Made by a program: the position numbers and the translations under genes. Source: a virus (lineage: Duplodnaviria > Caudoviricetes). Taken from it: a stretch of DNA of 64,000 bases. The notes under the pieces are model-generated. The model worked only from the letters and a program-made list of their open reading frames with translations, did no database searches and was not told where the DNA came from. The stretch covers positions 1 to 64,000 of the IMG/VR virus record IMGVR_UViG_3300001485_000138. One strand, written 5' to 3'. Shown piece by piece: positions 155 to 51,942 of this stretch (the first letter of the stretch is position 1; each line of letters begins with the position of its first letter).

Positions 155-308
155 ACACCATATAGTTTTTTATTGTTTAATAAATGTTAGTACTTAAAAG
201 TCTCTCTAAACAATTTCAAACGTTGCTCATGGTATTAATTTTAAATTAAAAGGTTAATTTAAAGAGAGATTATAGTCCTTCAGTCTGAGAAGATAGAAGG
301 ACTTCCAT

Positions 309-382
309 GCTCCGATAGCTCAACTGCATAGAGCAACGGCCTTCTAAGCCGTAGGTTGCGGGTTGGAGTCCCGCTCGGAGTA
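309..382 (+). tRNA. tRNA-Arg (anticodon TCT/UCU), CCA not encoded
   Basis: Acceptor GCTCCGA/TCGGAGT; D arm GCTC..GAGC; anticodon stem ACGGC/GCCGT with loop CT-TCT-AA (343-345); T arm GCGGG-TTGGAGT-CCCGC; discriminator A382. Confidence 0.95.
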
Positions 383-408
383 CTATAACAACTAAAACAA
401 TCATCATT

Positions 409-666: not shown

Positions 667-806
667 GGAGGTAACATAAGGATGTATATTGGTCACATTG
701 AAAAATTAAGGTGCAAGTCCTTGGTGCTGGGCATTAAGTTGACAGTACCTCAAGGTAGGATAGATGCCTGACTAATATGGTAGTTCGATTCTACTTACCT
801 CCACCA
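667..806 (+). ncRNA. 140-nt tRNA-like structured RNA with encoded CCA and an expanded domain in place of the anticodon arm
   Basis: GGAGGTA(667-673)/TACCTCC(796-802)+A+CCA; T arm GGTAG-TTCGATT-CTACT (779-795); D-like hairpin ACAT-AAGG-ATGT (674-685); 10-bp stem 686-695/769-778. Confidence 0.8.
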
Positions 807-1076: not shown

Positions 1077-1223
1077 ATGACACAAGAAGATAAAGAACTC
1101 CTTTTACATCTTCTTAAAAAGGCTGATGAAGATGGATTATTGAACATATACGACCAAGAAGAGAATCATTATGCAGTAGATTGGATGTTTCTTGATAGTG
1201 AGTTGGTTATAAAAATAAAATAA
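1077..1223 (+). CDS. hypothetical protein (48 aa, MTQEDKELLLHLLKK...)
   Basis: Hand-translated; first 30 nt identical to the start of the next gene. Confidence 0.6.
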   Translation: MTQEDKELLLHLLKKADEDGLLNIYDQEENHYAVDWMFLDSELVIKIK

Positions 1224-10996: not shown

Positions 10997-11194
10997 ATGA
11001 AACGCTTCAATAACTCTCTCAACCAACATTGGACACAGCATCATGGGAAGATGGTTCCAAAGAAAGCCTACAACTCTCTTGATGAAGCTATGTCCATCAT
11101 TGACACTCTGTATAAAAACAAACCACATTACCACCCCTATATCTGTAGCTTTTGTGGTCAGTGGCATATAGGACACCATAAATTAAAGAAATAG
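10997..11194 (+). CDS. small Zn-finger protein
   Basis: YICSFCGQWHIGH. Confidence 0.7.
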   Translation: MKRFNNSLNQHWTQHHGKMVPKKAYNSLDEAMSIIDTLYKNKPHYHPYICSFCGQWHIGHHKLKK

Positions 11195-11221
11195 TAAGTG
11201 CTCAAAGGTTTTGCCTTTGAG
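11193..11221 (+). promoter_or_regulatory. AGTHAGTG-hairpin element, copy 1
   Basis: AGTAAGTG-CTCAAAGG-TTTTG-CCTTTGAG. Confidence 0.85.
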
Positions 11222-11237
11222 ATAAAAACAAAACAAA

Positions 11238-13857: not shown

Positions 13858-13886
13858 AGTCAGTGCAAGACAGTTCGGCTGTCTTG
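13858..13886 (+). promoter_or_regulatory. AGTHAGTG-hairpin element, copy 2
   Basis: AGTCAGTG-CAAGACAG-TTCGG-CTGTCTTG. Confidence 0.85.
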
Positions 13887-13934
13887 ATAAAAAAAAACAA
13901 ATAATCAACCAACCAATTAAAAACCAAAACTATT

Positions 13935-14417: not shown

Positions 14418-15317
14418 ATGAAAGAAAACAATTACAGTTTCCTTGCTATTGGCAAGACACAGGACTCCGATAAAGGAGGTTTTAAGAGGTATATTGGTCT
14501 TGGTAGCACATTTATTAAGGGTGTGCAGCCTACCAAGAAAGAGCTTGATGAGTTCTTTGGCTTTGAATCTACATCAGAACCTGAGTACGTTAAAGAGGGA
14601 GAGAATGGAAAGGAAGTACATATCACATTCCTCATCCAGACTGACCCTGAAACTAACAATGGTATAGACCTCAAGTCCAGAGCTATGTTTACCCTCCGTA
14701 TGACTCCTGCTTACAACAGAGACCAGTCTAAGGTACAAGTAATAGACAAGTATGGTAACTATACCTATGTTTCTACTGAAGATGCAAAGGCAGGTAAGCC
14801 TATTCTTAACAGCTCTGGCAACCCTCAGAAGATAGACACCAAGTATCGCATGGCATGTGTAGGAGAATGTGACCTTGTGGCATTCCTCAAGAAGTATCTC
14901 TGTGTACCAGAAGCTTTCAATTATGTCAACGGTTCATGGGTGAAGAAGGAAGATGCTGATAACTATATCTTTGGTCTTGAACATATCAAAGATTATTTCT
15001 CTGGAAATTTCTCTGAGCTTAAAGAGGCATTGGCACTTCAACCAAACAACAAAGTTAAGCTTCTCTATGGGGTCAAAACTGATAAAGGCAAGCAATATCA
15101 AGCTGTTTGCACAAGAGGAGAACTCATCCTTCCAAACAATGCAGGCAGCTCTGCTGTTGCAAGATTGGAGAAAGACCTTACAAATGCTAAGCAGAATGGC
15201 TCATTCAGCACTACTGAGTATCGCGTGCAGGAACTCCAGGAATATACTGTCCAGCCAACTAATCTTGAAGAGAAACCACAGGAAGAAGCCAGTTCTTCCG
15301 ATGACTGGTGGAACTAA
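14418..15317 (+). CDS. probable single-stranded DNA-binding protein
   Basis: Sits between the AAA ATPase and primase; acidic/aromatic C-terminus EEASSSDDWWN. Confidence 0.55.
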   Translation: MKENNYSFLAIGKTQDSDKGGFKRYIGLGSTFIKGVQPTKKELDEFFGFESTSEPEYVKEGENGKEVHITFLIQTDPETNNGIDLKSRAMFTLRMTPAYNRDQSKVQVIDKYGNYTYVSTEDAKAGKPILNSSGNPQKIDTKYRMACVGECDLVAFLKKYLCVPEAFNYVNGSWVKKEDADNYIFGLEHIKDYFSGNFSELKEALALQPNNKVKLLYGVKTDKGKQYQAVCTRGELILPNNAGSSAVARLEKDLTNAKQNGSFSTTEYRVQELQEYTVQPTNLEEKPQEEASSSDDWWN

Positions 15318-15345
15318 GTAAGTGCTTTGAGGTTCTGCCTCAAAG
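15317..15345 (+). promoter_or_regulatory. AGTHAGTG-hairpin element, copy 3
   Basis: AGTAAGTG-CTTTGAGG-TTCTG-CCTCAAAG. Confidence 0.85.
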
Positions 15346-15377
15346 ATAAATAACTAACCCCCAAACGTGATAATCTT

Positions 15378-16400
15378 ATGCTAATAGGTAAAACTGCATC
15401 AAGTATATCAGTTCAAGAATTATTTCAAAAGTATTCAGAGGTACAGATATTCACCGCTGCCTTTCCTGAGATAACTTCAATACCTTGCAAGATAAGTTCA
15501 CCATTCAGAGTGGATAATAACCCGTCATTTAGTATATATCTTGACAATGGTGGGCATATAAAGTTCAAGGATTTTGGAGATTCCACATGTCATGGAGGAC
15601 TTCTTGACCTTCTATGCAAGAAATGGAACTGCTCTTTCCGGCAAGTCTTTGACAAGATTCTGCAACTCATGGCTCATAGTGAAGTCAGTGCAGAGGAATT
15701 TGGTTCCTCTGTTAAATCCAAGCAGATAAAAATACTCACCCGTAAGGAAGCCTCTGAATCTACCAAAATCCAAGTAGCTGTACGTCCTTGGCAAAAGTAT
15801 GACTATGACTACTGGGCATCCTATGGAATAGAAAAGCAGTGGCTTAAGTATGCAGAGATATATCCTATAAGTCATAAGATTGTCACTAAGAGGGATAGTA
15901 AGACAGGAAAACTTAATAAATACATATTTCCTGCTGATCAGTATGCTTATGTCTATGTAGAACGTAAAGAAGAGAAACTACAACTAAAGATATATCAACC
16001 CTATAATACTAAAGGATTTAAGTGGTGTTCTTGTATGGATTCTTCTGTTATATCTTTATGGACTAAAGTACCTGAAAGGGGAGATAGAATCATCATCTGC
16101 TCCTCAGTGAAAGATGCACTCTGTCTGTCTTGCAACTTGTATATACCTGCCATAGCTCCACAAGGAGAAGGCTACAGTCTTAGTGACACTGCTGTCAGTG
16201 AACTCAAAAGAAGGTTTGATAAGGTTTTTATTTGTTTTGATGTAGATAATGCAGGAAAGACAGATGCAGAGAAACTCGCAAAGAAAACAGGTTTTATCAA
16301 CATTGTACCTGACTTGGGGAAAACCAAAGACCTTAGTGACTATTGGAAATCCCTTGAAAACAAAGAAGACTTTAAACAACTTGAAACACTATTTCATTAA
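15378..16400 (+). CDS. DnaG-type DNA primase
   Basis: N-terminal SPFRVDNNPSF...FKDFG domain; TOPRIM CSSVKD and CFDVDNAG. Confidence 0.85.
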   Translation: MLIGKTASSISVQELFQKYSEVQIFTAAFPEITSIPCKISSPFRVDNNPSFSIYLDNGGHIKFKDFGDSTCHGGLLDLLCKKWNCSFRQVFDKILQLMAHSEVSAEEFGSSVKSKQIKILTRKEASESTKIQVAVRPWQKYDYDYWASYGIEKQWLKYAEIYPISHKIVTKRDSKTGKLNKYIFPADQYAYVYVERKEEKLQLKIYQPYNTKGFKWCSCMDSSVISLWTKVPERGDRIIICSSVKDALCLSCNLYIPAIAPQGEGYSLSDTAVSELKRRFDKVFICFDVDNAGKTDAEKLAKKTGFINIVPDLGKTKDLSDYWKSLENKEDFKQLETLFH

Positions 16401-24319: not shown

Positions 24320-24348
24320 AGTCAGTGCTTTGCAATTTGGTTGCAAAG
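24320..24348 (+). promoter_or_regulatory. AGTHAGTG-hairpin element, copy 4
   Basis: AGTCAGTG-CTTTGCAA-TTTGG-TTGCAAAG. Confidence 0.85.
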
Positions 24349-24385
24349 AAAACCCTATAACATAATGCTTAAACATAATATAATA

Positions 24386-31030: not shown

Positions 31031-31153
31031 ATGCACAATGAAGAGGAAGAGGTGGAAAGAGACACTCTGGAGGAGGAGTTGTACTTACTTACCCATACTC
31101 CCCACCTCTTTCCTGTTAATACCCCAAACCGCGTGAATTATAAACAAGAGTAG
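31031..31153 (+). CDS. small acidic peptide (40 aa)
   Basis: Hand-translated; TAG stop overlaps hairpin copy 6. Confidence 0.4.
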   Translation: MHNEEEEVERDTLEEELYLLTHTPHLFPVNTPNRVNYKQE

Positions 31154-31180
31154 TTAGTGCAAGATGATTCGGTCATCTTG
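31152..31180 (+). promoter_or_regulatory. AGTHAGTG-hairpin element, copy 6
   Basis: AGTTAGTG-CAAGATGA-TTCGG-TCATCTTG. Confidence 0.85.
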
Positions 31181-31196
31181 ATAAAAAGAAAACACT

Positions 31197-32976: not shown

Positions 32977-32979
32977 AGT

Positions 32980-33008
32980 AGTAAGTGCAGCAAGATTTGG
33001 TATTGCTG
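32980..33008 (+). promoter_or_regulatory. AGTHAGTG-hairpin element, copy 7 (one stem mismatch)
   Basis: AGTAAGTG-CAGCAAGA-TTTGG-TATTGCTG. Confidence 0.75.
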
Positions 33009-33028
33009 ATAAAAATTTTATTATAATC

Positions 33029-33466
33029 ATGATATTCAAAGATAAAGGTATTATAGAAGAACATATAAACCAAATCTATCCAAACATCTTAGTAGTAGCA
33101 TTTGGAGACTTGGAACAGGAGGTAAATAAATATTATAAACCTTATGATACAGACTATAATTGGATAGCTAAACCAAGAGAAATTTCCAATGCTGCTACAT
33201 ATCAGATAACAAATAAAAAGACATTGGATAATGGTCTGCTTGTATGGTTTTCCTCAATGGATAAATATTCAACAAAGACATTATGTCATGAGTCTGGACA
33301 TGTAGCTCTTGAAATGTTTGCGTATATAAAGGAGAAAATAAGTACAGAATATCAAGAACCATTCTGCTATCTCCTCGGCTATATAGGCAAGTGTATCAAC
33401 AATACATTCTACAAGTATAAAGAATATTTAGAAAAGCAAAAAGAAATCAATAACACTCAAAAGTAA
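33029..33466 (+). CDS. small HExxH (zincin-like) protein, paralog 2
   Basis: LCHESGH...EPFCYLLGYI; track start 32942 runs through the hairpin, ATG at 33029 preferred. Confidence 0.7.
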   Translation: MIFKDKGIIEEHINQIYPNILVVAFGDLEQEVNKYYKPYDTDYNWIAKPREISNAATYQITNKKTLDNGLLVWFSSMDKYSTKTLCHESGHVALEMFAYIKEKISTEYQEPFCYLLGYIGKCINNTFYKYKEYLEKQKEINNTQK

Positions 33467-33490
33467 GTGCAAAGAGATTTGGTCTCTTTG
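33462..33490 (+). promoter_or_regulatory. AGTHAGTG-hairpin element, copy 8
   Basis: AGTAAGTG-CAAAGAGA-TTTGG-TCTCTTTG. Confidence 0.85.
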
Positions 33491-33502
33491 ATAATTAACT
33501 AT

Positions 33503-35747: not shown

Positions 35748-35901
35748 CCACATGAGTGACTCCTTTCAACAGGAAATGTCACAGCCTTTCCACCATAACT
35801 TCGACTATGATGGTGGGCATTGGTACAAACTTATGCTTAACCACTGTACCTACAATAAAACAAAAAACCAGATTTCAGTAACCCTAACTTACAACATATA
35901 G
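35677..35901 (+). CDS. hypothetical protein (74 aa)
   Basis: ORF track; stop overlaps hairpin copy 9. Confidence 0.6.
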   Translation: MITLKLFNNLPPSIRKKIAKVVFNHMSDSFQQEMSQPFHHNFDYDGGHWYKLMLNHCTYNKTKNQISVTLTYNI

Positions 35902-35928
35902 TAAGTGCAGAAAGGTTCGGCCTTTCTG
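35900..35928 (+). promoter_or_regulatory. AGTHAGTG-hairpin element, copy 9
   Basis: AGTAAGTG-CAGAAAGG-TTCGG-CCTTTCTG. Confidence 0.85.
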
Positions 35929-35947
35929 AAAAAACCAAGCAAAAACT

Positions 35948-36419: not shown

Positions 36420-36992
36420 ATGCCAAACTGGGCTTCTGTATCCTACAGAATCGTAGGACCTAAAGAAATATTACAAAAAGTATATGATGCTGTACAGTAT
36501 CCTATGATAGAAGAAGGCTCAAGTGAAGATTGGGAAGGTAATGTACTAAAAACCCTTAAACCTGACTGGAAATGCCCTGAAGGGGAATCTATACGAGGAT
36601 TCATACAATACTTTGATTTACAAAGATTAGATGAATGTGAATATATAATCTTAGATGCTGATGAAGCATGGGGCTTAACATGTTTCCATGAAGAACTCAG
36701 CAAGATATTCTCTGACCTTAACATCTTCTATATAGTTGAAGAACCTGGACTTGAAGTATATCACACTAATGATGTTGAAGGTGTATTCTTTCCAGAAAGA
36801 TTATATGTAGATGCTTGTATTGATAATGACTATTATTCTGAATACTTCCAAACAGAGAAAGATGCCTATCATTATATCGCAAAGATAACCAAAGGTGCAA
36901 TCAAAAGCAAGGATGACCTTGAGAGATTCAACAAAGATAACACCAATGAAAATGATTTCATAAGCGTTCATGAGTTTGAAATTGATGAGTAA
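36420..36992 (+). CDS. MPNW-start (DUF1281/ferredoxin-like-fold) phage protein
   Basis: MPNWASVSYRI...EAW...EEPG pattern (recalled family). Confidence 0.55.
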   Translation: MPNWASVSYRIVGPKEILQKVYDAVQYPMIEEGSSEDWEGNVLKTLKPDWKCPEGESIRGFIQYFDLQRLDECEYIILDADEAWGLTCFHEELSKIFSDLNIFYIVEEPGLEVYHTNDVEGVFFPERLYVDACIDNDYYSEYFQTEKDAYHYIAKITKGAIKSKDDLERFNKDNTNENDFISVHEFEIDE

Positions 36993-37016
36993 GTGCTTCA
37001 AGATTCGGTCTTGAAG
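36988..37016 (+). promoter_or_regulatory. AGTHAGTG-hairpin element, copy 10
   Basis: AGTAAGTG-CTTCAAGA-TTCGG-TCTTGAAG. Confidence 0.85.
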
Positions 37017-37050
37017 TAATCCCAACTACCTATTGGTAGAACATTCCACA

Positions 37051-51449: not shown

Positions 51450-51468
51450 ATGTAAAGTTTTCAGCAAT

Positions 51469-51497
51469 AGTCAGTGCAGCCTGATTTGGTCAGGCTG
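51469..51497 (+). promoter_or_regulatory. AGTHAGTG-hairpin element, copy 11 (at the convergence point)
   Basis: AGTCAGTG-CAGCCTGA-TTTGG-TCAGGCTG. Confidence 0.85.
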
Positions 51498-51510
51498 TTC
51501 CTACATTTAC

Positions 51511-51942
51511 TCACACCTTCCTCCACTCCCTCCACATTCTCTCCACTAAATACCCTATAGTATAAGCAGGTTCCTCTCCTCTATCCTCAACATCATAGGC
51601 TAATAACATTGCCTGCTTCACATGTTCTGCCTCATGCACCAAAGAGTTAAGATAATCTCCTCTGTCTTCATGCTCATTAAACAGCACTATACTCACATGA
51701 CTCTCCAAGTTACTATAAGTAACTGCCTTTGCCATCCCACTCCTCATCCACACATATATCTCTTCCAAGTCCCCTATTACCCCATCATAATAGGCATCCA
51801 TAGTTAGTGCTTTGAAGTTTGGCTTCAAAGATAAAAACTCCTTCCTCACATCTCTAACCACATAACCAAAAAGGCTATAGTCCATATCATAATAAACTAT
51901 AACCTTCCAGTATCCATCAACATCTATCACCTGTCTTCCCAT
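51511..51942 (-). CDS. small HExxH (zincin-like) protein, paralog 3
   Basis: LVHEAEH...EEPAYTIGYL. Confidence 0.75.
   Translation of the reverse strand: MGRQVIDVDGYWKVIVYYDMDYSLFGYVVRDVRKEFLSLKPNFKALTMDAYYDGVIGDLEEIYVWMRSGMAKAVTYSNLESHVSIVLFNEHEDRGDYLNSLVHEAEHVKQAMLLAYDVEDRGEEPAYTIGYLVERMWREWRKV

Follow-up and report, generated by a model that had tools for sequence, protein, structure and literature searches.

A crAss-like gut phage contains a 140-nt sequence that begins and ends like a tRNA and encloses 73 nt between the two strands of its anticodon stem. Is this a tRNA gene with an intervening sequence, the remains of a tRNA gene, or the gene of an RNA that imitates tRNA? The window analysed here is a stretch of 64,000 nt (positions 1 to 64,000 of IMG/VR virus record IMGVR_UViG_3300001485_000138), to which all positions of the element refer. 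The source record has 86.7 kb, is ~73% complete and contains giant ORFs typical of crAss-like phages. Among gut phages, Crassvirales are the most abundant. Coding density in the record is high under the standard code (code 11) and signs of stop-codon recoding are absent; thus a role of the element as a suppressor tRNA for recoding was ruled out.

The outer tRNA frame

The preliminary description of this locus had listed a 7-bp acceptor stem, a discriminator A, an encoded CCA, a T arm with the loop TTCGATT and a D-like hairpin with GG, and all of these are read directly from the sequence (Table 1). The outer T arm has the canonical residues G53, T54, T55, C56, R57, A58 and C61, and position 3-70 of the outer acceptor is A3-U70. 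For the outer D region two readings exist. As a hairpin (ACAU-AAGG-AUGU, 674-685) it contains the GG, and the 10-bp helix begins right behind it; this is the form used by the MFE structure. In the cloverleaf reading, which ARAGORN uses on the in-silico spliced sequence, A8 and C9 precede a D stem (676-678/687-689) with the loop AGGAUGUA, followed by U26. The element departs from the tRNA invariants in having A8, no A14, and A33.

Table 1. Features of the element (positions in the 64,000-nt window)
Feature	Positions	Strand	Description
Whole element	667-806	+	140-nt tRNA-like element of a crAss-like gut phage
Outer acceptor, 5' strand (GGAGGUA)	667-673	+	7 Watson-Crick pairs with 796-802; pair probability 0.9-1.0
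Outer D region	674-690	+	Two alternative readings, hairpin or cloverleaf
Central helix, 5' strand (AUAUUGGUCA)	686-695	+	10 contiguous pairs with 769-778, enclosing 73 nt
Linker, reads as V region of the inner body	696-707	+	Starts with CAUUGAA, 7 nt similar to the anticodon loop of tRNA-Gln(UUG), with A33
Inner T-arm-like hairpin (AAGG-UGCAAGU-CCUU)	708-722	+	Optional fifth pair U707.G723; pair probability 0.02
Inner acceptor-like stem (AS)	723-749	+	GGUGCUG (723-729) with CAGUACC (743-749), 7 bp including one G.U; pair probability 0.16
Inner D-arm-like hairpin (GGUA-GGAUAGA-UGCC)	754-768	+	4 bp, 7-nt loop containing GG; abuts the central helix
Central helix, 3' strand (UGACUAAUAU)	769-778	+	In the cloverleaf, 774-778 form the variable loop
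Outer T arm (GGUAG-UUCGAUU-CUACU)	779-795	+	Stem 779-783/791-795, loop UUCGAUU
Outer acceptor, 3' strand (UACCUCC), discriminator A803 and encoded CCA (804-806)	796-806	+	Direct reading

A scanner for full tRNA frames with an oversized loop picked up the element and gave 0 matches in shuffled sequence, and the fold of the full 140-nt RNA has a z of -2.76 against shuffles. The outer tRNA frame is real and not a product of chance. The standard detectors were silent on it, as had been expected: ARAGORN made no call on the native element in its standard, intron and tmRNA modes, and no Rfam 15 family matched it at gathering thresholds or at E<=10, with positions 600-880 scanned permissively. The neighbouring tRNA-Arg(UCU) at 309-383 scored 65.6 bits where the element gave nothing. 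The tRNA family (RF00005) has no model match to the native element, which carries 73 nt between its anticodon-stem strands and A at position 33. The element is real, unusual and missed by every standard annotation tool.

The central helix

The 10-bp helix around 73 nt noted earlier is confirmed, with 10 contiguous pairs. How the frame around it is drawn depends on the reading. In the cloverleaf, positions 8-9 are followed by a 3-bp D stem, U26, an anticodon stem (691-695/769-773), a 5-nt variable loop and the T arm. The reading of the preliminary description amounts to a linkerless four-way junction: AUAUU, the 3' strand of the D stem together with U26, is paired to AAUAU of the "variable loop", and the stem thereby grows to 10 bp. 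Positions 691-695, pairing with 769-773, are the anticodon-stem equivalent and are common to both tRNA-like bodies discussed below. Contrary to what had been proposed, the anticodon arm is not replaced: a 5-bp anticodon stem and a loop-like stretch of 7 nt, CAUUGAA, are both there.

The outward extension of the anticodon stem amounts to 5 bp in the element. Among 635 distinct class-I phage tRNAs none had an extension of at least 4 bp, the maximum being 3 bp. The 10-bp helix is real and exceptional among phage tRNAs.

A putative permuted second body inside the loop

By its sequence, the 73-nt insert reads as a second tRNA-like body that is circularly permuted, with the order V, T, AS, D, and uses the helix of the outer frame as its anticodon stem. 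The hairpin at 708-722 had been recognized before as resembling a T arm. Its sequence is present and its loop, UGCAAGU, is a genuine T-loop variant that occurs in more than 100 phage tRNAs; the nearest-neighbour pair probability, however, is only 0.02. The 5' strand of the AS stacks directly on this hairpin, and the stem is capped by a 13-nt loop (730-742). Four nucleotides separate its 3' strand from the inner D-like hairpin, which appears in the frame-enforced MFE structure as well as in that of the insert alone; the GG lies at the 5' side of its loop, which is not the canonical pattern. Two further inner helices of the preliminary description, a GGCAU/AUGCC stem and a UACC-UCAA-GGUA hairpin, have a pair probability of ~0 and compete with better readings.

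Such a combination is rare. Among 200,000 shuffled inserts, a T-type hairpin was present in 1,217, together with a directly stacked 7-bp helix in 9, and with a terminal GG hairpin in addition in 0. When 4.26 Mb of real phage DNA was scanned on both strands, the module with a shared helix was found at three places, namely the element and two junctions of adjacent tRNAs; shuffles gave 0, 0 and 0. The content of the module descriptor is the standard tRNA feature set, but it was composed after inspection of the sequence, which weakens the p-value. The element can also be viewed as two 64-nt units, 667-730 and 743-806. Since the acceptor strands are swapped between the units, neither closes its own acceptor, unlike the members of a tandem tRNA pair.

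Thermodynamically, the insert by itself is only slightly more stable than its shuffled versions (z -1.5 to -1.8). The nearest-neighbour model favours another fold of the insert, a long irregular hairpin at 709-750 (pair probability 0.84), and gives -30.6 kcal/mol for the twin-body fold versus an MFE of -44 kcal/mol. Only the plus strand shows the structure (minus strand z -0.14), which rules out a DNA palindrome. The idea that the insert is a copy of the AGTAAGTGC hairpin repeat of this genome was rejected.

The adjacent-tRNA junctions also bear on whether the element could be an accident or a gene in decay: recombination with a neighbouring permuted module or with another tRNA would have disrupted a tRNA gene, which might be kept as an RNase P processing signal of the early operon or have no function. 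We regard this as rather improbable. Only tandem-tRNA junctions otherwise pass the module test, so illegitimate tRNA recombination could build the layout, and the several departures from the invariants (A8, no A14, A33) would fit a degenerating gene. Yet both acceptor stems are perfect 7-bp helices between different units, which means that four strands must match, and the extra 5 bp of the central helix are unexpected for junk given their absence from all 635 phage tRNAs.

A stand-alone permuted RNA in sister phages

Two Logan contigs, L184 and L185, carry an 81-nt stand-alone permuted mimic (L184:322-402, equal to L185:582-662), followed by an ordinary tRNA-Gln(UUG). Its MFE structure, by plain thermodynamics, is the same permuted design (z -5.16). 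It resembles the element in its slot, the same downstream ORF, a closing helix, a T arm with a UUCGAUU loop, a capped acceptor-like stem of 7 nt against 7 nt and a GG-containing strand. In contrast to the element, it is closed by a 12-bp stem of its own, lacks a D stem, lies separate from the tRNA frame and has no sequence similarity to the insert. As modelled, this RNA shows that phages of this group have permuted modules also as RNAs of their own.

Whether permuted modules form a broad stand-alone class among the loci collected was also considered, but after removal of overlaps with tRNAs only the element and the L184/L185 mimic were convincing. A family of elements with UGCAAGU and GGAUAGA in tandem (L044 and others) was dropped as a source of homologs because its topology differs. 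Homology of the insert with the equally long insert of L082 was dropped as well; the comparison gave p ~0.01 before correction for four comparisons, and scans gave no support.

Genomic slot, copies and homologs

In L184 and L185 a homolog of the downstream ORF (82% identical) lies behind the same leader sequence, and the same slot, directly upstream of this leader, is occupied by an ordinary tRNA-Gln(UUG) of 48-56 bits. The ENA contig L188 has the element (100% identical), leader and ORF unchanged next to a different upstream gene, and its identity with the record stops exactly at -1 of G667. The leader and ORF common to L184, L185 and L188 begin right past position 806. The identity break at -1 and the tRNA-Gln in the slot indicate that the slot is occupied by a cassette that can be exchanged and has the tRNA ends as its limits. 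The element is flanked neither by a promoter of the sigma-70-like or Bacteroidota type nor by an intrinsic terminator, hence the RNA would need to be processed from an early polycistronic transcript. In two metatranscriptome runs, contigs lay on the neighbouring tRNA-Arg only and none on the element, which is uninformative on its expression.

Two bovine-gut contig sets span the element at 95-99% identity, and the known copies altogether are 95-100% identical, a range in which selection is not demonstrable. This, the recombination hot spot with its exchangeable cassettes and the lack of a dedicated promoter or terminator would be compatible with a decaying gene. Against decay speaks that the cassette is unchanged in two genomic contexts and that the two natural variants are structure-neutral (G758A, in a loop) or pair-improving (G779A, which turns a G.U into an A-U pair in the outer T arm).

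No diverged homolog was found with blastn "distant" against 50,697 phage records, with blastn and nhmmer against 65 related loci, in pattern scans of IMG/VR, where the GGTGCAAGTCC pattern was non-specific (tandem tRNAs), or in prokaryote genomes. Scanning IMG/VR with cores common to the element and L082 produced coincidences in coding sequence only. The 3' exon end retrieved from metagenomes the identical copy L187, one unrelated tRNA and nothing else, and no homologs of the upstream ORF were found. A covariance model built from the element matched only ordinary tRNAs and unrelated long tRNA-like frames. As no collection searched yielded a diverged homolog, the homolog search and covariation check proposed in the preliminary description brought no support from covariation.

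Could it be a tRNA-Gln with an intervening sequence?

A group I intron has a ribozyme core, P3-P9, and usually at least 200 nt. The insert is too small for this, as had been stated before, with 66-73 nt and no Rfam match at E<=10. The earlier dismissal of an intron had rested solely on the size of group I introns, and a small protein-dependent intervening sequence stays a serious rival. The element would then encode a tRNA-Gln(UUG) interrupted by 66 nt (703-768 or 702-767), which proteins would cut out before a host ligase, e. g. RtcB, joins the exons into a 74-nt tRNA reading CAA. We consider this unlikely, though clearly worth weighing.

In its favour speaks the slot: L184 and L185 carry an ordinary tRNA-Gln(UUG) in exactly this place, with the same leader and ORF. 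The best non-self match of the covariance model was likewise a tRNA-Gln(UUG), with 32.3 bits, and the start of the loop, CAUUGAA, compares with CUUUGAA in another phage tRNA-Gln. The exon body, however, is not Gln-like when the loop is masked (p 0.66), and its acceptor has the pairs G1-C72 and A3-U70 where the sister tRNA-Gln has U1-A72 and G3-C70. When the intervening sequence was removed in silico, ARAGORN reported a 74-nt tRNA-Gln(ttg) at the sub-default threshold of 92-90%; the default threshold was reached if position 33 was set to T as a scoring control. On the other hand, 0 of 4,860 deletions gave a tRNA at the default threshold, and deletions shifted by one nucleotide, with other anticodons, scored slightly higher. 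The A33 in place of the near-universal U33 occurs in 4 of 767 phage tRNAs. Moreover, the spliced RNA would prefer the fold with the 10-bp helix over the cloverleaf (-23.8 vs -14.9 kcal/mol). The helix extension, the A33 and this misfolding of the spliced RNA all argue against an ordinary decoder.

RtcB is encoded by Bacteroides thetaiotaomicron, which served as the control, and could be supplied by a host. RtcB, Rnl1, Rnl2 and a CCA-adding enzyme are all absent from the phage record, although for Rnl1 this negative is weak since the control was positive nowhere, and a splicing endonuclease is missing there too. Bacteria have no demonstrated mechanism for such splicing. A BHB splicing motif was also considered; none that was clean by eye was present, and the corresponding endonuclease is absent from the record. 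With a permuted module, RNase P or RNase Z would be expected to open the cap and not to excise the insert.

Precedents for inserts at this site exist. L024 is a tRNA-Ala frame with a 31-nt insert past a complete loop. The Lak megaphages, which infect Prevotella, have "enigmatic" tRNA introns of 79-114 nt at the same site, which match no Rfam family and some of which are tRNA-shaped (Devoto et al. 2019, PMC6784885, Table S6). The element shares with them the origin from a gut Bacteroidota phage, a non-group-I insert of tens of nucleotides, which in the tRNA-Gln reading lies directly past the anticodon, the absence of an Rfam match, tRNA-like features in the insert and an A/U-rich linker of the AAAUUA type. 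It differs in the order of the module. In the Lak introns this is the standard 5'-to-3' order, ending at the 3' junction, whereas in the element the T arm comes first, followed by the acceptor 5' strand and the D arm, and the insert, which has no terminal acceptor stem, is permuted and capped. Furthermore, the Lak introns reside in canonical U33 tRNAs and not in a frame with A33 and a 10-bp helix, and the phage studied here is crAss-like (~90-120 kb) and has no RNA ligase in its recovered part.

The order of the inner body recalls the permuted tRNA genes of Cyanidioschyzon merolae (Soma et al. 2007, considered here as cited in 10.1101/312249). There, too, the 3' half (T arm and acceptor 3' strand) lies ahead of the 5' half (acceptor 5' strand and D arm), and a capped acceptor is expected to be opened by RNase P and RNase Z. 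Those genes, however, are eukaryotic or archaeal and give rise to decoding tRNAs by way of a BHB endonuclease and a circular intermediate, whereas the inner body of the element has no anticodon loop and the record no such endonuclease.

Relation to YrlA and tmRNA

Bacterial Y RNAs of the YrlA type consist of a Ro60-binding stem, a V region, a "T" stem-loop, an acceptor-like "AS" and a "D" stem-loop (PMC4201824). In the element the same permuted V-T-AS-D body sits on a helix that stands in for the anticodon stem, with the linker at 696-707, T at 708-722, AS at 723-749, D at 754-768 and the helix at 691-695/769-773. The size is similar, 140 nt versus the 147 nt of Mycobacterium smegmatis YrlA, and the AS has 7 bp in both. 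The M. smegmatis AS is cleaved by RNase P in vivo, after which CCA is added (Chen et al. 2014, PMC4201824; Wang et al. 2018, 10.1101/312249). YrlA RNAs occur also in phages and beside tRNA genes, and an origin from dimeric tRNAs has been proposed for Y RNAs (PMC4201824; 10.1101/312249), which fits the two 64-nt units of the element.

Other features of the family are missing. When the YrlA model (RF02553, gathering score 69 bits) was run against the whole phage genome at E<=10, the only score was 9.3 bits on the T arm of the tRNA-Arg, and the Y_RNA model (RF00019) did not match the element. Its T and D stems depart from the sequences that are nearly invariant in YrlA, and the 5' motif GNCGAAN0-1G is absent on direct reading. 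YrlA genes lie within ~4 kb of rsr on the same strand, and the RNA is bound by Rsr and modified by TruB and DusA (PMC4201824; 10.1101/312249). In the 86.7-kb, ~73% complete record the TROVE domain (PF05731; rsr/Ro60 ortholog) is absent, whereas the same search was positive in Bacteroides thetaiotaomicron. In addition, the helix of the element leads at its far end into another tRNA top half, which is open and bears its own CCA, and not into a simple Ro60-binding stem. Thus the element agrees in order, size and 7-bp AS, the remaining family features fail, and we use YrlA-like as a working term without filing it as a YrlA member.

The 5' strand of the helix, GGUCACA, agrees in 5 of 7 positions with the metazoan GGUCCGA that is contacted by Ro60, and lacks the bulged C. 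UGGUC/GACUA in the central helix presumably resembles the core of a Ro60-binding helix; we take this as a lead only.

The tRNA-like domain of tmRNA had been named earlier as similar in architecture. The resemblance holds for the acceptor with CCA, the T arm, the reduced D region and a long helix at the anticodon arm. So do the differences that had been pointed out, A3-U70 in place of G3.U70 and a far shorter RNA (140 nt versus ~350). The element lacks pseudoknots and a credible tag frame as well, ARAGORN in tmRNA mode made no call even at an 80% threshold, and YrlA is the closer likeness. A short tmRNA-like tag frame starting from GCA 713 was dropped because the alanine identity pair is missing. 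A 2026 preprint describes three new bacterial families of tRNA mimics; all are motifs that Rfam already contains, and none of them matches here. As far as we could find, the double-bodied layout is undescribed so far and would be a new variation on the YrlA-type mimic.

A proposed double-bodied tRNA mimic

The reading that we favour, with confidence just short of even, is that the phage encodes here a tRNA mimic that does not decode and has two bodies, with a YrlA-like architecture nested in a tRNA frame. The preliminary description had also arrived at a tRNA mimic. The roles suggested for it there, as a decoy for anticodon nucleases, a ligand of SmpB or the ribosome, or an aminoacylated RNA, gained no support and stay hypothetical. 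The mimic as such is favoured here too, on the grounds of the permuted nested body, while the GGCAU/AUGCC and UACC-UCAA-GGUA helices drawn inside it are unsupported. With two tRNA bodies joined where an anticodon belongs, the RNA probably imitates tRNA and does not read codons.

In this mimic, the first body would be a tRNA top half in ordinary order (acceptor, T arm, reduced D region, encoded CCA). The second, in the place of the anticodon loop, would consist of the permuted V linker, the T arm, the capped 7-bp AS and the D-like arm. Both would be served by one central helix, which has 5 bp and can be lengthened to 10 bp. Equivalently, the RNA may be described as two 64-nt tRNA-like units with exchanged acceptor strands. 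Its release from the early polycistronic transcript would require an RNase P cut at G667 and trimming to the encoded CCA. RNase P could possibly also open the capped inner stem, at 742/743, as this stem has 7 bp like that of M. smegmatis YrlA. The mature RNA may then occupy host proteins that recognize the elbow or the acceptor end of tRNA.

A more elaborate possibility, which we consider very improbable, is a two-headed tRNA decoy. RNase P would cut both at G667 and at 742/743 and CCA would be added to the new 3' end, giving a symmetric "tRNA dimer" of two paired 64-76-nt strands with two CCA ends and no anticodon. Such a dimer could hijack or block a host machine that recognizes tRNA, e. g. 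RNA decay by Rsr/Ro60-PNPase or a tRNA-sensing anti-phage defence. If true, the dimeric-tRNA intermediate that has been suggested in the origin of Y RNAs would have a living representative in it. If instead the intervening-sequence explanation were right, the element would be a further unexplained ribozyme-free insert in a gut-phage tRNA, and the permuted module and the lack of a phage ligase would constrain the splicing mechanism.

Should the double-bodied architecture hold, the permuted mimic of the YrlA type would extend to Crassvirales, here without a linked Ro60 gene. A natural RNA would then carry a body in normal order and a permuted one on a single helix, which is the topology that has been suggested for dimeric tRNA transcripts as ancestors of Y RNAs. 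Likewise, some of the oversized "tRNA-like" or "intron-bearing" phage tRNA genes missed by annotators may be mimics and not decoders, and whether they are matters for the interpretation of tRNA repertoires, recoding and anti-defence functions in phages.

Permuted and two-part tRNA-like RNAs in other phages

In two sister phages (Logan contigs L184 and L185), a circularly permuted tRNA mimic of 81 nt occurs as a stand-alone RNA, immediately 5' of an ordinary tRNA-Gln(UUG). It is composed of a 12-bp closing stem, the T arm GUGAG-UUCGAUU-CUCAC, an acceptor-like stem that carries a cap (AAGUCCC/GGAACUU) and a strand containing GG. The permuted design is exactly the minimum free energy structure of this RNA (z -5.16), and no match to it was found in Rfam.

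The T-loop variant UGCAAGU, which has a G at the usual psi55 position, occurs in numerous phage tRNAs. GGTGCAAGTCC was found shortly 5' of a second tRNA in more than 119 loci (IMG/VR loci L002-L120). A two-part element recurs in L005, L031, L040, L044, L059, L061, L065, L066, L071 and L104. Its first part is a tRNA-like RNA of about 105 nt (GCGUAGU...GAGG-UGCAAGU-CCUC-ACUACGC); 3 nt later the second part begins with GGUAUUGUUGAU..GGAUAGAAAUGC.., followed by a T arm and a capped acceptor 3' strand, whose pairing partner lies 6-7 nt further downstream.

Oversized tRNA frames

The covariance model built from the 140-nt element also found RNAs of 119-146 nt with the acceptor/T-arm frame of a tRNA. 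Their interiors are idiosyncratic and some have an ACCA end; those in L136 and L179 lie in loci of rumen phages that are related to the present locus. The 138-nt tRNA frame in L082, with a canonical D arm and G3.U70, lies between tRNA-Lys and tRNA-Leu, where it fills a gap in an array of 37 tRNAs that lacks tRNA-Ala. Its 73-nt 'anticodon loop' folds into two hairpins (z -3.2), and simple deletions restore no canonical anticodon loop. In L024 a gene resembling tRNA-Ala, again with G3.U70, contains the complete loop TTTGCAA, which a 31-nt insert separates from the 3' half of the anticodon stem.

Features in the window and in other loci
Feature	Location	Strand
tRNA-Arg(UCU)	window 307-384	
Identical starts of small ORFs	window 1077-1106, 1233-1262	
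AGT(A/T)AGTGC hairpin repeats	window 11192-11227, 13858-13890, 15317-15350, 15682-15717, 24320-24353, 31151-31186, 32979-33014, 33461-33496, 35899-35934, 36987-37022, 51468-51503, 51802-51835	
81-nt permuted mimic	L184:322-402; L185:582-662	
138-nt tRNA frame	L082:2883-3020	
tRNA-Ala-like gene	L024:10309-10410	minus
119-146-nt frame RNAs	L146:2083-2228; L179:1487-1625; L136:3763-3881; L070:3265-3408; L027:5674-5805; L035:8269-8391	

tRNA-Arg, codon usage and repeats

The exact sequence of the window's tRNA-Arg(UCU) is present in contigs from two metatranscriptome runs. The flanks of these copies are unrelated, and thus the tRNA is common to other genomes. Across the whole genome record G000, which contains the window, Ile is most often encoded by ATA (35.8 per 1000) and Arg mainly by AGA (21.7 per 1000). 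The phage encodes tRNA-Arg(UCU); an AUA-reading tRNA-Ile was not detectable in the recovered 73% of its genome.

A repeat family in the window, intergenic and located in the early/replication block, consists of AGT(A/T)AGTGC and, after it, a 7-bp hairpin whose loop reads (A/G)TTYGG, with a tail rich in A. It has no relation to the tRNA-like element at 667-806. Two adjacent small ORFs share their first 30 nucleotides (ATGACACAAGAAGATAAAGAACTCCTTTTA), a gene start that was duplicated locally.
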